UHGV virus genome: UHGV-0095938
Origin: a virus
Reading direction: 5' to 3' (one strand)
DNA: 18,161 nucleotides
This document shows positions 4,660 through 15,191 of this stretch, in pieces. Each line of letters opens with the position of its first letter. The first letter of the stretch is position 1. Made by a program: the position numbers and the translations under genes. The notes below the pieces were generated by a model that made no database searches, was not told the origin of the DNA, and saw only the letters and a program-made list of their open reading frames with translations.

Positions 4660-5132
4660 ACCTCAATCTCTCTGACCGTTCCGCCAGCTTCTTTGAATTT
4701 TGCAATCAGGTTGTCAGCCTTATGCTCGAACTGACCATAACCAGCGCCCGGCAGTGAAGCCCAGATATTGCTGCAACGGTCGATAGCCTGACGAATATCA
4801 CCGCGGTCAATCATCGGTAAAGCGCCACGCTCCTTAATCTGCTGCAGCGCAACAGCGTCCTGGCTTTTGGGAGAGAAGTCTTTCAGGCCAAGCTGCTTAC
4901 GGTAAGCATCCCACCAACGGGAAAGAAGCTGGTAACGTCCGGCTGCTGTTGATTTGAGTTTGGGGTTTAGCGTGACAAGCTTGCGAGGGTGATCGGAGTA
5001 ATCAGTGAATAGCTCTCCGCCAACAATGACGTCATAACCATGATTTCTGGTTTTCTGTCGTCCGTTATCAGTTCCCTCTGACCACGCCAGCATATCGAGG
5101 AACGCCTTACGTTGATTATTGATTTCCACCAT
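4656..5132 (-). CDS. R: Endolysin R (lambda-type lytic transglycosylase)
   Basis: 158 aa; sequence [39 protein letters not shown]... is near-identical to lambda R as recalled. Confidence 0.9.
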
Positions 5133-5439
5133 CTTCTACTCCGGATTTTTTAGCAGCGAAGCGTTTGATAAGCGAACCAATCGAGTCAGTACCGATGTAG
5201 CCGATGAACACGCTCGTTATATAAGCGAGATTGCTACTTAGTCCGGCGAAGTCGAGAAGGTCACGAATGAACCAGGCGATAATGGCGCACATCGTTGCGT
5301 CGATTACTGTTTTTGTAAACGCACCGCCATTATATCTGCCGCGAAGGTACGCCATTGCAAACGCAAGGATTGCCCCGATGCCTTGTTCCTTTGCCGCGAG
5401 AAGGGCGGCTAACAGGTCATGTTTTTCTGGCATCTTCAT
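5116..5439 (-). CDS. S: Holin S with dual-start motif
   Basis: 107 aa beginning MKMPEK (Met1-Lys2-Met3, the lambda S107/S105 arrangement). Near-identical to lambda S as recalled; overlaps R by 17 nt. Confidence 0.9.
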
Positions 5440-5685
5440 GTCTTAGCCCCAATAAGGGGATTTGCTCTATTTAATTAGGAATAAGGTCGATTACTGATAG
5501 AACAAATCCAGGCTACTGTGTTTAGTAATCAGATTTGTTCGTGACCGATATGCACGGGCAAAACGGCAGGAGGTTGTTAGCGCAACCTCATGCCGCCCGC
5601 TTTCACGAAGATCATGTGTAGAAGGCCGCAGCGTAACTATCACTGATGAATTCAGGACAGCCAGTGGCTACGACTCAGTTTGGGT

Positions 5686-5811
5686 TGTGGCGGCCGGAAT
5701 CGAACCGGCTTCCATCGGTGCGCTGCCGATTGCAGTACGCGCGGCGGTCAGCTACATGACTAGTATTTTCACTGTCGCCTATCTGCTAGCTCGCCATTGA
5801 GCTTCACCACA
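5686..5811 (-). other. tRNA-like element (possible interrupted or degenerate tRNA)
   Basis: Minus strand has a canonical T-arm GCCGG-TTCGATT-CCGGC, then 3' acceptor CGCCACA. An anticodon-arm-like ATCGG-CAGCGCA-CCGAT precedes the T-arm. A matching 5' acceptor TGTGGTG plus a D-arm-like GCTC-AATGGC-GAGC lie about 58 nt further upstream. Lacks U33 and an encoded CCA; total span is too long for a normal tRNA. Confidence 0.3.
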
Positions 5812-5948: not shown

Positions 5949-6467
5949 CTAAATGGCTAATTGCATGTCAAGGTTTTTAACAGCAACATGCTTAACTTTC
6001 TCAACACGTTTACGCATTTTGAAAGCATTTTGCATTGGCTGGTATAAAACAAATAATGACGCTTTCAGGATGTCGTCAATTTCGTTTCTACAGGTTGCCA
6101 GTGAAGGTTTTCTCCATCCCTCACCACCACGTCCACACATCTTGCGTGGCTTTGCAGTCTCGTGATAGTAGGATGCAATTGCTCGCTTAGATGAACCATG
6201 AGCGTAGTAGCTGAGGAGGATGCCAAAGGCTTTCTTGTCAATGTACATGACGGAATCGACGACCTGAGAAATCAACATTCCATCATCATCATTGCACATT
6301 GGTCTTGTCATAACTCTTCCTGGCTCTACGCTCTCCATGAACTTCGCTATTACGCTGCTCATACGCTTTTCCAGACGACCTGAATAAACCCATGCGCCCC
6401 ACAGTTCAAGCCAGCCATTCAGCCACTCGTGCTGTTCTTTGGTGAGGTTTAGTTCTCTTATGCTCAT
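5949..6467 (-). CDS. Late-gene regulator in the Q position (putative antiterminator, family unresolved)
   Basis: 172-aa ORF between ninH and the S-proximal intergenic region, overlapping ninH by ATGA. Assignment is by position only; it does not resemble lambda Q as I recall it. Confidence 0.45.
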   Translation of the reverse strand: MSIRELNLTKEQHEWLNGWLELWGAWVYSGRLEKRMSSVIAKFMESVEPGRVMTRPMCNDDDGMLISQVVDSVMYIDKKAFGILLSYYAHGSSKRAIASYYHETAKPRKMCGRGGEGWRKPSLATCRNEIDDILKASLFVLYQPMQNAFKMRKRVEKVKHVAVKNLDMQLAI

Positions 6468-8039: not shown

Positions 8040-8912
8040 TCATGCAGCTTCCCTCCCGAAGTCGAAATCAAGCTGCCCTCCAAATATTTCGCATGATTCA
8101 GAACAAGAGCCAGTATCGAATCTTTTAGCTCGTACCATGTCCTGATACAGGGCTTGATAATCATTTTCTGAATACATTTTCGCGATACCATCCAGCGACA
8201 TTCTTCCTCGGTACATAATCTCCTTTGGTGTTTCCCGATGTCCGTCACGCACATGCGATCCCGTGATGACCTCATTAAAAACACGCTGCAATCCCTCCTC
8301 ATCTTTGCAGGCAAGTCCGATTTTTTGCGTTGATTTTTTAATGCAGAATATGCAGTTACCGAGATGTTCCGGTATTTGCAAATCGAATGGTTGTTGCTTC
8401 CACCATGCGAGGATATCTTCCTTCTCAAAGTCTGACAGTTCAGCAAGATATCTGATTCCAGACTTTGGCTTTAGCCGCTTCGGTTCATCAGCTCTGATGC
8501 CAATCCACGTGGTGTAATTCCCTCGCCCGAAATGGTCATCACAGTATTTGGTGAAGGGAACGAGTTTTAATCTGTCAGTGCAGAACGCGCCGCCGACGTA
8601 TGGAGTGCCATATTTCTTTACCATATCGATAAATGGCTTCAGAACAGGCATTCGCGTCTGAATATCCTTTGGTTCCCATACCGTATAACTATTTGGCTGC
8701 CCAAGCTCTGGGTTGATATCAACCTGCAATACGGTGAGCGGTATATCCCAGAACTTCACAACTTCCCTGACAAACCGATATGTCATTGGATGTTCACAAC
8801 CTGTATCCATGAAAACGTAATGCACGTCTTCACCTGCCCGTCGCTTTTGCTCCATTAGCCAGAGCAAATATGCTGACGTCCTGCCACCGGAGAAACTAAC
8901 GACATTTATCAT
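8040..8912 (-). CDS. NinC-like protein (PAPS reductase / PP-loop family)
   Basis: PP-loop-like [10 protein letters not shown] near the N-terminus. Start taken as the ATG at 8912, which gives 290 aa and an ATGA overlap with the ninB stop. Confidence 0.75.
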
Positions 8913-9349
8913 GCAGCCCTGTCTCCCCATCTCGCTTTCCACTCCAGAGCCAATCGAGCTTCGTCTGACCACTTAACGCCACGCTCTGTACCGAATGCCT
9001 GTATAAGCTCTAATAGCTCCGCAAATTCGCTTACACGCATCCTGCTGGTTGACTGGCCTATTACCACAAAGCCATTCCCGGCAAGGTTAGGAACAACATC
9101 CTGCTGCTTTAATGCTGCGGTAAACACACACTTCCAGCTTTCTGCATCCAGCCAGCGACCATGCCATTCAACCTGACGAGAGACGTCACCTAAGCAGGCC
9201 CATAGCTTCCTGTTTTGGTCTAAGCTGCGGTTGCGTTCCTGAATGGTTACTACGATTGGTTTGGTTGGGTCTGGAAGAATTTGCTGTACTGCGTGAATAG
9301 CGTTTTGCTGATGTGCTGGAGATCGAATTTCAAAGGTTAGTTTTTTCAT
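8909..9349 (-). CDS. ninB: NinB (Orf-family recombination mediator)
   Basis: 146 aa, the same length as lambda NinB/Orf; first gene of the nin array after the replication genes. Confidence 0.75.
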   Translation of the reverse strand: MKKLTFEIRSPAHQQNAIHAVQQILPDPTKPIVVTIQERNRSLDQNRKLWACLGDVSRQVEWHGRWLDAESWKCVFTAALKQQDVVPNLAGNGFVVIGQSTSRMRVSEFAELLELIQAFGTERGVKWSDEARLALEWKARWGDRAA

Positions 9350-12295: not shown

Positions 12296-12416
12296 TTCTT
12301 ACTATCTCCATAGGTAAATAATTTGTGTTTTTATCGTGCACCATTGACAGTCATCCTTGACCACGCCGGGCACCCGACCGTATACCGGGCCGTTCGGTAC
12401 TGAAAGTACATTTTTA

Positions 12417-12662: not shown

Positions 12663-12734
12663 TGAACTTATGGTTCATATTATGACGGAACTGATAGTAC
12701 AGTCAATACCTAATATAGTTGAACTTATGGTTCA
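12663..12734. promoter_or_regulatory. Immunity switch: two identical 15-bp operators flanking divergent PR-like and PRM-like promoters
   Basis: TGAACTTATGGTTCA occurs at 12663-12677 and again at 12720-12734. A minus-strand promoter has -35 TTGACT (12706..12701), a 17-nt spacer and -10 ATAATA (12683..12678). A plus-strand TAATAT (12711-12716) sits just upstream of the cI ATG. Confidence 0.6.
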
Positions 12735-13434
12735 ACAGAAAGAGCGTGAAACTTTCTCGCAGAGGCTTGCGCTGGCCTGTGATAAAGCGGGATTACCTTT
12801 GCATGGTAGGCAGGCTGATTTAGCTGTCAGGCTTAAGGTCACACCAAAAGCCATTAGTAAATGGTTCAACGGGGAGTCAATACCAAGAAAAGACAAGATG
12901 GAATCTTTGGCTTCGGTGCTGGGAACCACTGCGGCATATCTGCATGGCTATGCTGATGATGACGGTATCACGGTAAATCATCTATCAAGATCAAATGATT
13001 CTTATCGTGTTGATGTATTGGATGTTCAGGCGAGCGCCGGGCCAGGAACCATGGTTTCCAATGAATTTATAGAAAAGATAAGAGCAATTGAATATACGAC
13101 CGAGCAGGCAAGAATTTTATTTAATGGAAGGCCACAGGAAAGCGTAAAAGTCATCACGGTTCGCGGTGACAGCATGGAGGGAACCATCAATCCGGGAGAT
13201 GAGATCTTTGTTGATGTATCCATAACCTGTTTTGATGGCGATGGCATTTATGTGTTTGTATACGGGAAAACAATGCACGTTAAGCGCCTGCAAATGCAAA
13301 AGAACAGGCTTGCCGTCATCTCTGACAATGCCGCTTATGATCGATGGTACATAGAAGAAGGTGAAGAAGAGCAACTTCACATTCTAGCCAAAGTCCTCAT
13401 TAGGCAGTCAATCGATTACAAGCGATTCGGATAA
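12727..13434 (+). CDS. cI: CI-like prophage repressor (HTH plus S24 LexA-type peptidase domain)
   Basis: 235 aa from the ATG at 12727. N-terminal HTH-like region (QADLAVRLKVTPKAISKWFNG) and C-terminal GDSM...KR autocleavage motifs. The ORF-track start at 12562 is an unlikely upstream extension that overlaps cro. Confidence 0.85.
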   Translation: MVQQKERETFSQRLALACDKAGLPLHGRQADLAVRLKVTPKAISKWFNGESIPRKDKMESLASVLGTTAAYLHGYADDDGITVNHLSRSNDSYRVDVLDVQASAGPGTMVSNEFIEKIRAIEYTTEQARILFNGRPQESVKVITVRGDSMEGTINPGDEIFVDVSITCFDGDGIYVFVYGKTMHVKRLQMQKNRLAVISDNAAYDRWYIEEGEEEQLHILAKVLIRQSIDYKRFG

Positions 13435-13449
13435 AAATAAATTTCCTTA

Positions 13450-13540
13450 AAGTTCACTAACTTATGATGTAGTGAGCTTTTTATACCCATAAAATGTACT
13501 ATTGGTACTTTACATTAATGAACTTTAAGTACATCATAAG
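13450..13540. promoter_or_regulatory. Putative OL/PL region
   Basis: Degenerate operator-like sites CTAACTTATGATGTA (about 13457-13471) and TGAACTTTAAGTACA (13519-13533). An 11-bp inverted repeat CTTATGATGTA / TACATCATAAG lies at 13461-13471 and 13530-13540. Confidence 0.35.
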
Positions 13541-13695
13541 CCCATAGACGAACGGCGCGTCTTTAAACCATGCGTCGGGAGCGCGGCGGGTTCAGGATGA
13601 ACGGCAATGCTGCTCATTAGCGAGAAGGCTTTTTTGCTTTTAGTCACAAAAAGCAAAGCAGCTTTTTGATATAGAAAAAGAAAAAGGAGGCTGAT

Positions 13696-14139
13696 TTGAA
13701 GAGTGCTACAGTTTACACGGCAATGAGAGTTAAGCAATATGGCGGCGTACCTTCGGTAGAGGTAAGGTGTGATGATAAAAGAACCAAAGTTGTTACTGAT
13801 TGCCTTCTGCTTTTTAAAAGCATAGATGAGGTAATTTTTATTGGCGCTGAAAATCTTCACCCTTTGATAAAAGCAGAGATGAAGCAATGTGCAATCGATG
13901 CATTGGGAGTTGGGCAAGGCAAGTCTCAGATCGAAGCAAAGCAAATGCTTACAGAGCTTGAAAGCAGCAGACGTAGACAAGCAAGCAGGGCAAGACAATT
14001 TCACGATGCGATCGCAGGATGGAGCAGAGAGCTTATGTCTTTAAATGTAGACATACAGAGAGGAATTGATATTCCAACAATAAGGTCAAGAATAGGTACG
14101 ATCGCAGAGAACATGGAAAAGCTAAATCCAAAGAAATAA
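13696..14139 (+). CDS. Hypothetical protein (147 aa), TTG start, first gene downstream of the putative PL
   Basis: AGGAGG RBS 5 nt upstream of a TTG start; tandem stops TAATAA; intrinsic terminator directly downstream. AT-rich. Contains an internal Arg-rich stretch SSRRRQASRARQF. Confidence 0.55.
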   Translation: MKSATVYTAMRVKQYGGVPSVEVRCDDKRTKVVTDCLLLFKSIDEVIFIGAENLHPLIKAEMKQCAIDALGVGQGKSQIEAKQMLTELESSRRRQASRARQFHDAIAGWSRELMSLNVDIQRGIDIPTIRSRIGTIAENMEKLNPKK

Positions 14140-14141
14140 TA

Positions 14142-14165
14142 ACCCGCTAAGGCGGGTTTTTTATT
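14142..14165 (+). terminator. Intrinsic terminator
   Basis: ACCCGC-TAAG-GCGGGT followed by TTTTTTATT. Confidence 0.7.
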
Positions 14166-14274
14166 ACATAAATAACCGTATTTACTACCGCAAGCCACGC
14201 AGTGAAATGGGTGTGACTTGTGTTGGTCGCCAGAAAATGAAATTAGGCAGCAAACCACTTATTTGAGGTGAGAT

Positions 14275-14463
14275 ATGGAACGTAAATTTGAAATTTGGTT
14301 GGATTCCGGCGCAAACATTCATTCTTGCAAAAAGACAGTTGTAACACTCGATGATCTTGGCTTATCCGAGAATGAGTGGAATGAAATGGATCAGGACGAA
14401 AAAGACGAAAACATGCGTGATGTAGCATTTGAAACGCTTGATTGGGGATGGAAGGAAATTTAA
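14275..14463 (+). CDS. Small acidic hypothetical protein (62 aa)
   Basis: GAGGTG RBS 4 nt upstream of the ATG. About 17 Asp/Glu in 62 residues. Followed by an intrinsic terminator. Confidence 0.55.
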   Translation: MERKFEIWLDSGANIHSCKKTVVTLDDLGLSENEWNEMDQDEKDENMRDVAFETLDWGWKEI

Positions 14464-14468
14464 GTGAT

Positions 14469-14493
14469 GGCCGCATAGTCGGCCTTTATTTTT
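14469..14493 (+). terminator. Intrinsic terminator
   Basis: GGCCG-CATAGT-CGGCC followed by TTTATTTTT. Confidence 0.65.
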
Positions 14494-14515
14494 GGCATAA
14501 ACAACAGAGGCTAAC

Positions 14516-14806
14516 ATGGAATTTAAAGGTACTGAAGGTAAGTGGGAAATAATGATGGATGGCGATGAGATTAAAATCATCCAGGCAGACTCACTTGAAA
14601 ATGGCGCAGGCTGGCGTTCGTATATTGCAATCTGTGAGGAAGTTCAATGCATTGAAGATGCCAATCTAATAGCGGCAGCACCAGACCTTTTAAATGCCAT
14701 GCAAGCGATGCTAAACAAGGCATACAAGCAAAAATGGAATGACCATTATCCTGATGAAGTATCGAAAGCACTGTCAGCAATCAGCAAGGCTCTGGGAGGT
14801 GAATGA
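14516..14806 (+). CDS. Hypothetical protein (96 aa)
   Basis: ORF with an AGAGG RBS; its stop overlaps the next gene's start (ATGA). Confidence 0.55.
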   Translation: MEFKGTEGKWEIMMDGDEIKIIQADSLENGAGWRSYIAICEEVQCIEDANLIAAAPDLLNAMQAMLNKAYKQKWNDHYPDEVSKALSAISKALGGE

Positions 14807-15006
14807 TGTGCGAGTTTTATGAAGCAGATATCAAACGCCCAGAAATGGCAAGTGATGCGACATTACGTGATTACTTCGCGGCAAAGGCTATGCAAGCAAT
14901 GATTAGCAATCCATCGATTATCGATAATGATTCTGATGGAGCTGTTAATTATGCAGCAAGCGCTGCATATAAGTTTGCAGACGCAATGCTCAAAGCTCGC
15001 GAATAA
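14803..15006 (+). CDS. Hypothetical protein (67 aa)
   Basis: Translationally coupled to the upstream 96-aa gene. Followed by a perfect 9-bp stem hairpin and then an intrinsic terminator. Confidence 0.5.
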   Translation: MMCEFYEADIKRPEMASDATLRDYFAAKAMQAMISNPSIIDNDSDGAVNYAASAAYKFADAMLKARE

Positions 15007-15101
15007 GCACTGTGTATTCATTCCAACGAGTGAATACACGGAGCAATGTCGCTCGTAACTAAACAGGAGCCGACTTGTTCTGATTATTGGAAATCTTCTT
15101 T

Positions 15102-15125
15102 GCCCTCCAGTGTGAGGGCTTTTTT
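15102..15125 (+). terminator. Intrinsic terminator
   Basis: GCCCTC-CAGTGT-GAGGGC followed by TTTTTTAT. Confidence 0.7.
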
Positions 15126-15191
15126 ATATGCATACCAATAACGCTTCACTCGAGGCGTTTTCGTTATGCAATCAAACAGAAGGAGCATCCT

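Follow-up and report, generated by a model that had tools for sequence, protein, structure and literature searches.

The left immunity boundary of an HK022-type, P22-like mosaic lambdoid prophage with a probable early accessory gene for a conserved orphan protein

Introduction

In phages such as lambda and P22, the slot following the PL promoter belongs to the N antiterminators (lambda N, P22 gp24), small basic proteins with an arginine-rich motif (ARM) at the N-terminus of an otherwise unfolded chain of about 100 aa. The lambda gene order continues with ral and sieB just after N, and lambda Ral lies behind tL1. Ral, a protein of 66 aa, is accessory and occurs sporadically; its gene lies a short way past the antitermination gene and shares the PL transcript with it. 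HK022 Nun, lambda SieB and RexAB, and 933W Stk are lysogen-protective genes at neighbouring positions, and the genes for Nun, SieB and RexAB are served by promoters of their own or by PRM. A terminator right after the gene is a classical feature of morons.

A different solution to early antitermination is found in HK022, a phage that has no N and whose nascent put RNAs bind the zinc-binding domain of the RNA polymerase beta' subunit and suppress pausing as well as termination without any phage protein (PMC9378689).

In the present study, we analysed an 18,161-nt stretch of viral DNA (UHGV-0095938; referred to as the window), in which an initial annotation had pointed out the gene of an unrecognised 147-aa protein behind a CI-like repressor gene and a putative OL/PL. 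Two readings had been offered for this gene, namely that (i) it encodes a divergent antiterminator with an internal arginine-rich motif; or (ii) it represents a lysogeny cargo gene.

Results

Positions 13435–13676 of the window are 100% identical to HK022 (X16093, AF069308) and O276 and 99.2% identical to HK75, and the counterpart of this segment is annotated as OL1-3, PL and putL in the HK022, O276 and HK75 records. Given the 100% identity to the annotated HK022 operators and PL, the OL/PL assumed in the initial annotation is real and the 147-aa gene is the first gene behind it, but the putL element at 13546–13619 had been overlooked. The region consists of the following features:

12336–12392, minus strand: putR antiterminator RNA site in the cro-cII spacer, mapped from the misc_RNA putR of O276
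12727–13434, plus strand: HK022-type CI repressor gene, 99% identity to the cI of HK022/O276, mapped from annotation
13473–13532, no strand assigned: operators OL3, OL2 and OL1, mapped from the HK75 features oL3, oL2 and oL1
13509–13537, plus strand: PL promoter, -35 TTTACA and -10 CATCAT, from a promoter scan and the HK022 pL elements annotated in O276
13546–13619, plus strand: putL antiterminator RNA (annotated core 13553–13615), 100% identity to HK022 putL
13625–13672, plus strand: AU-rich hairpin with UUUUUGA behind it, located between putL and the ribosome binding site (RBS), -14 kcal/mol, z -2.8, common to HK022

The early-left region of the window hence shares cI, OL1-3, PL, putL and the hairpin behind putL with HK022, HK75 and O276 at 99–100% identity, and putR is present as well, the spacer between cro and cII being nearly identical to the region that is annotated as putR in phage O276/HK022. 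What differs is the part behind the common leader, where HK022 carries the nun promoter and nun, whereas the window carries the 147-aa gene, a terminator and a remnant of N. Since the put sites occupy the nut positions, no nut sites are found in the window, and the presence of HK022-type putL and putR likewise accounts for the lack of an intact N: both elements act in cis, and early antitermination therefore needs no N protein. Put-dependent read-through of terminators is known for the HK022 sequence to which the putL of the window is identical (PMC9378689). Judged by this identity, early antitermination at the locus is RNA-mediated and of the put type, and the puzzle of the missing N is explained by the well-studied put RNA mechanism of HK022, which is already known and ordinary.

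The minimum free energy fold of 13546–13619 comprises two stem-loops, whose thermodynamic z of only -0.6 is not significant alone, and stem I of putL displays one compensatory exchange (GaCG..CGtC / GtCG..CGaC) among prophages with a different repressor. No put family exists in Rfam, and a scan of the window against this database gave two sub-threshold matches only.

A stable hairpin a few nucleotides 3' of putL stem II is present in every put-type locus, HK022 included, and equivalents of the hairpin at 13625–13672 were found in L005, L026, L028, L030, L034, L039 and L042. These hairpins belong to three unrelated sequence types, each of which folds stably (z -3.5 to -7.6, compared with -2.8 in the window), and in the E. 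coli type they are followed by UUUUUGA. The structure is thus conserved and the sequence is not. The hairpin may represent a third element of the put module, for example a pause site, an attenuator or a means of protecting the RNA 3' end.

Behind this leader, the window continues with:

13685–13690, plus strand: Shine-Dalgarno sequence AGGAGG, 5 nt ahead of the TTG, read from the sequence
13696–14142 including the stops (ORF 13696–14139), plus strand: gene of the 147-aa orphan protein, TTG start, TAA TAA, PHROG 13686
14141–14165, plus strand (the hairpin also reads on the minus strand): intrinsic terminator, tL1 equivalent, AACCCGC-TAAG-GCGGGTT followed by T6
14171–14266, plus strand: remnant of a lambda-type N gene, last 31 codons and stop, detected by tblastn with lambda N

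The length of 147 aa, the TTG start, the AGGAGG RBS, the tandem TAA TAA stops (14137–14142) and the strong terminator were all found as initially annotated, and a GGAG-type RBS is conserved across the loci homologous to the 147-aa gene. The terminator hairpin folds with -11.9 kcal/mol (z -3.3), and 7 terminator-like sites were counted between 12300 and 15700, compared with 3.0 ± 1.7 in shuffled sequences. The gene had further been described as visibly more AT-rich than its flanks. It is indeed AT-richer, but only modestly so, with a GC content of 40.9% versus 44.6% for cI and 42.8% for the next 1.5 kb (47.7% for the whole window), and the effect is real but small. In other phages, the GC content of the gene tracks the local one (38–51%); compared with its own locus, it is 0–5 points lower in most cases, slightly higher in two and about 10 points lower in L039.

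On the opposite strand, an ORF of 156 aa with a GTG start (13534–14004, minus strand) overlaps putL and the gene; it is probably spurious, as the codon-position variation among the homologues fits the plus frame. A sub-threshold Rfam match to the STnc370 sRNA (14131–14182, minus strand; 32 bits versus a gathering score of 54) corresponds to the minus-strand version of the terminator hairpin.

A consensus promoter scan from PL to the start codon found no sigma-70-like promoter besides PL, with the proviso that weak promoters may escape such a simple scan. A weak extended -10-like sequence (TGATATAGA) is located at 13667–13675, and a weak hairpin (about 13452–13490) lies between cI and the region of the 147-aa gene. 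In a second immunity type, a strong terminator is placed between the repressor gene and PL and insulates the 147-aa gene from repressor transcription.

For a comparison across phages, 51 loci with the 147-aa gene were fetched, many of which are near-duplicates (the first 40 represent 26 distinct gene sequences). All full-length copies have exactly 147 aa, down to 60% identity, whereas two of the 51 loci carry a frameshifted allele, and 59 residues are invariant in the family, with the strongest conservation from E87 to R132. The start codon is TTG in 40 of the 51 loci, ATG in 8 and GTG in 3. The variable columns of 25 distinct intact homologous sequences are distributed as 91/67/142 over the three codon positions. 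The dN/dS ratio amounts to 0.04–0.27 in the seven comparisons with unsaturated synonymous sites, and in the other comparisons the synonymous sites are saturated while dN is 0.15–0.35. Such a pattern of substitutions indicates that the 147-aa ORF is a real protein gene under strong purifying selection.

Shortened forms occur as well. A frameshifted 89-aa allele (protein P0020; L010 3020–3289, L040 4001–4270) is found on 164 contigs of the protein collection, which stem from bovine and O-antigen-diverse E. coli prophages, and Salmonella carries a truncated 86-aa allele (P0037). In lysogens with the 89-aa or 86-aa alleles, the 147-aa gene is dispensable.

In searches for relatives, the protein matched the HMM of PHROG 13686, a family of unknown function, over its full length (E 5e-92, residues 1–147 on profile positions 1–147 of 147). 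No match was obtained in Pfam at E ≤ 1, N36 and N_peptide included, among the PADLOC-DB defence models at E ≤ 10, or in a sequence search of the PDB. NCBIfam gave nothing significant (best E 0.042, 12 bits versus a cut-off of 299.6), and an exhaustive profile search of 1.84 billion representative proteins returned only the own family with 4 representatives. The description as an unrecognised protein consequently holds, as profile searches lead to PHROG 13686 alone and to no characterised relative. Literature on the protein accessions, PHROG 13686 and phiEt88 contained nothing useful on function. At 90% identity, the family falls into 15 clusters. Its named members, all of them called 'hypothetical protein', come from E. 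coli, Salmonella, Cronobacter, Enterobacter and Erwinia; of 5426 complete E. coli genomes, 21 carry the gene, as do 6 phage records. PHROG 13686 is a tiny orphan family restricted to enterobacterial lambdoid phages.

Structure prediction with AF2 gave a confident fold (pLDDT 84.6, pTM 0.56), in which a four-stranded sheet (residues 5–49) is followed by helices 56–72, 76–121 and 126–143. Informative fold relatives were not obtained: a BFVD fold search gave nothing below E 0.02, and the N-domain weakly resembles the nucleic-acid-binding protein SpoVG (PDB 2i9z). The internal arginine-rich stretch emphasised in the initial annotation is present (SSRRRQASRARQFHDAIAGW, residues 90–109) and represents the best-conserved part of the family, with the exception of its second Arg, which is not conserved. 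Residues 90–101 of the stretch are located in the middle of the predicted 46-residue helix 76–121, and the long central helix bears an invariant R-x-R-Q-A-S-R-A-x-Q-F motif. The protein is basic, and its pI of 9.4 rules out a DNA-mimic anti-restriction protein.

The gene order is constant in all 51 loci, the antitermination module (putL or N) being followed by the 147-aa gene. Its upstream neighbour is putL without N in 27 of them and an intact N in the other 24. In putL-type loci, the core lies 104–153 nt upstream of the gene, except for L028 with 459 nt, where a Nun homologue (58% identity to HK022 Nun) is found between the putL core and the gene. In N-type loci, the N gene ends 2–52 nt ahead of the 147-aa gene; these N proteins have lambda-type or P22-type ARMs and exceed the Pfam thresholds. 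Since the homologues coexist with intact N and with Nun, the 147-aa protein is no substitute for either of them. A terminator (ACCCGC-loop-GCGGGT and a T-run) follows 0–45 nt past the stop in 50 of the 51 loci, the hairpin of L027 being degenerate.

Further downstream, the genes vary from locus to locus, which rules out a conserved partner gene. One locus, L026, contains both the 147-aa gene and a Ral homologue, which rules out a simple mutual exclusivity with Ral; a Ral homologue is absent from the other loci.

The assignment of the gene to the N position is literally correct, as the 3' remnant of N lies just past the terminator of the gene. The accompanying statement that there is no N downstream of PL is valid for an intact N but not for this 31-codon C-terminal remnant. 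In tblastn searches, the remnant was detected with E 3e-5 to 7e-5 and 58% identity (80% in the allele of L013, L015 and L017), its translation NNRIYYRKPRSEMGVTCVGRQKMKLGSKPLI corresponding to the end of lambda N, NQRTWYSKPGERGITCSGRQKIKGKSIPLI, each followed by the stop. Its location behind the terminator implies that the unit of putL, gene and terminator replaced nutL and about three quarters of N. The segment 13537–14280, which includes the -10 element of PL, putL, the gene, the terminator and the spacer, is 98–99% identical among prophages with different repressors and, on this evidence, forms one mosaic block. Identity to HK022 breaks off at 13676–13679, 20 nt ahead of the TTG.

In most loci, N-tail remnants consisting of the C-terminal 25–45 codons occur in frame 30–90 nt past the terminator. 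They are of the lambda type (..GRQK.K.KS.PLI, then stop) or the P22/Tbat type (CLP[DE]VA.Y.AG.R...TAR, then stop) and are found also where an intact N precedes the gene, with two or three copies in L036 and L042. Examples are:

L006, 3530–3607: N-tail remnant
L027, 4837–4914: N-tail remnant
L031, 4486–4614: N-tail remnant
L036, 4485–4619, 5290–5439 and 5670–5750: N-tail remnants
L042, 4490–4620 and 5035–5115: N-tail remnants

These remnants, whose frames stay open and retain the motif, fit scars of successive swaps of antitermination modules, in which the right-hand crossover would have taken place inside the resident N. A related junction is seen in phage APC_JM3.2 (L007, about 2280–2372), where putL and the same RBS are followed by the first 3 codons of the gene (TTG AAG AGT G), which continue in frame into an N tail of 21 residues (CLPEVALFAAGHRTSKQVTAR, then stop); by its sequence, this is a chimeric junction at which the 147-aa gene was lost. 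Two divergent forms of the family were also observed. P0018 (L046 1195–1491) joins a lambda-N-type N36 ARM of 41 residues to residues 49–107 of a divergent short family form, and P0017 (L044 3225–3545) is a 106-aa short form without the C-terminal helices that adjoins an N-tail remnant in a degraded prophage.

Past the N remnant and before cIII (14275–15160, plus strand), the window contains more terminator-bounded cassettes:

Within 14275–15160, plus strand: 62-aa ORF, PHROG 8831, with a terminator at 14469–14484
Within 14275–15160, plus strand: 96-aa and 67-aa ORFs, PHROG 1273 and 2201, with terminators at 15102 and 15140

These layers of cassettes are consistent with stepwise accretion. Two observations concern other parts of the window. 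Between the Q-like gene (5949–6467) and the holin gene (5116–5439), a segment with 66% GC (5682–5740, minus strand) is similar to the T-arm and the 3' acceptor end of a tmRNA or tRNA; Rfam scores it as tmRNA with 20 bits, below the gathering score of 47 (E 1e-4), and ARAGORN called no tRNA there. It may represent the relic of a tRNA gene in the late leader. A PAPS-reductase-like gene (8040–8972, minus strand; PHROG 33262/424) lies in the nin region, with the replication genes on one side and Q on the other; it may have a DNA-modification or auxiliary function.

Discussion

From our point of view, the locus is best read as follows: it marks where the immunity region of an HK022-type lambdoid (P22-like mosaic) prophage ends on the left, and it carries an early accessory gene. 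We consider this reading probable. Within it, we are highly confident of the transcriptional anatomy as described and of the conclusion that the 147-aa protein is not N.

Since the gene is positioned between PL and the first terminator and no other promoter was found, it would be a PL-driven immediate-early gene that is repressed by CI. The layout of promoters and terminators makes an exclusively immediate-early expression somewhat likely; TGATATAGA or read-through from cI across the hairpin at about 13452–13490 could provide some expression in the lysogen. In the lysogen, CI would repress the gene. Upon induction or infection, PL would fire, putL would modify RNA polymerase, and the first message to be made would encode the 147-aa protein, with the usual non-ATG start keeping translation moderate. 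The modified polymerase would then pass the terminators at 14141–14165, 14469, 15102 and 15140, and read-through would reach cIII, kil, erf, ssb and abc2.

The analogy that we favour is the Ral protein of lambda and P22, which is likewise accessory, sporadic and encoded on the PL transcript a short distance past the antitermination gene. Ral has no sequence similarity to the 147-aa protein, however, and unlike ral the 147-aa gene precedes the first terminator. With a Ral-like role, the product would be a stand-alone early accessory factor in host takeover, counter-defence or early regulation. The basic surface, the invariant motif and the lack of a conserved partner gene would fit a factor that acts on its own. 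One could speculate that, early in infection, this cytoplasmic basic protein with its small beta-sheet domain and three helices, of which the long central one bears the invariant motif, binds a conserved component of the host or a nucleic acid. This proposed mode of action is a conjecture that we put forward tentatively and would not call likely.

Among the alternative explanations, the one that survives best is lysogeny cargo, i.e., a moron that is expressed in the prophage and protects the lysogen, for instance by superinfection exclusion or abortive infection. We consider it rather unlikely. The gene occupies the slot of HK022 nun, which encodes an exclusion factor and has its own promoter, and lambda sieB is found in the corresponding place; the nun promoter region is absent, however, with the identity to HK022 ending ahead of the TTG, and no promoter-like site was found between PL and the ORF. 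In the N-type phages, the short distance to the N stop even leaves no room for a promoter. Beyond the shared genome neighbourhood, Nun, SieB and RexAB have no homology to the 147-aa protein, no promoter of the gene's own was detected here, and L028 possesses both a Nun homologue and the gene. The slightly higher AT content compared with the flanks would suit a moron, but the GC content of the gene follows that of its own phage. Similarly, the sporadic occurrence in complete E. coli genomes and the strong terminator directly downstream of an unrecognised accessory protein point towards cargo, whereas the wide distribution of frameshifted 89-aa alleles in prophages and the lack of a PADLOC match point away from it. 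The initial cargo proposal is supported in part, and weakly.

It is also conceivable that the gene is an accessory component of lambdoid early-transcription modules, which would be carried along in exchanges of N or putL and made before the first terminator. That it is found next to an antitermination module without exception could have its cause in a functional connection with transcription. We nevertheless regard this idea as improbable, and give equally little credence to its mechanistic form, in which the protein would act on Rho, Nus factors, RNA polymerase or the early transcript via the invariant Arg/Gln-rich helix.

Very improbable is the notion of a transcription factor proper, either a divergent N-like antiterminator that operates through the internal Arg-rich helix, as initially suggested, or a modulator of termination and antitermination that targets RNA polymerase, Rho or Nus. 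The protein does share with the N antiterminators the slot after PL, a basic character and an Arg-rich stretch, and this helix is conserved; but the stretch lies within a predicted fold and not in an N-terminal, disordered ARM, and its second Arg varies. Pfam gave no N match, and hhalign of the family against an alignment of 7 N proteins returned a probability of 0.1%. In 51 of 51 loci, the gene is the direct neighbour of the antitermination determinant and lies ahead of the first terminator, but antitermination is explained without a protein by putL and putR, which are identical to the proven HK022 elements, and the homologues sit behind bona fide N genes, coexisting with lambda-type N, P22-type N and Nun. 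The family is moreover absent from most lambdoid phages. P0018, which combines an N36-type ARM with the middle of the family, would be a further argument for an N-like function, but its contig has a length of 1.7 kb, and the protein has the appearance of a deletion fusion; the weak resemblance of the N-domain to SpoVG also speaks for such a role.

Finally, the possibility that there is no functional gene at all and that the ORF arose by chance or is a relic that decays in the leader separating putL from the next gene, as the unassigned function, the non-ATG start and the shortened alleles might suggest, is for practical purposes refuted by the conservation pattern, with a length that stays constant in full-length copies even at 60% identity, saturated synonymous sites at dN 0.15–0.35, third positions that vary more than first and second ones and a conserved RBS, and is further opposed by the confident AF2 model.

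Returning to the early accessory gene as the preferred reading, proteins that are made so early are good candidates for counter-defence or host takeover. The N remnants at the cassette junctions record the exchange of antitermination modules between lambdoid phages. With the missing N accounted for, a tightly conserved orphan protein is left, whose gene has a constant address behind the antitermination element and ahead of the terminator that comes first in the early-left operon; this address is seen in phages of E. coli, Salmonella, Cronobacter, Enterobacter and Erwinia.
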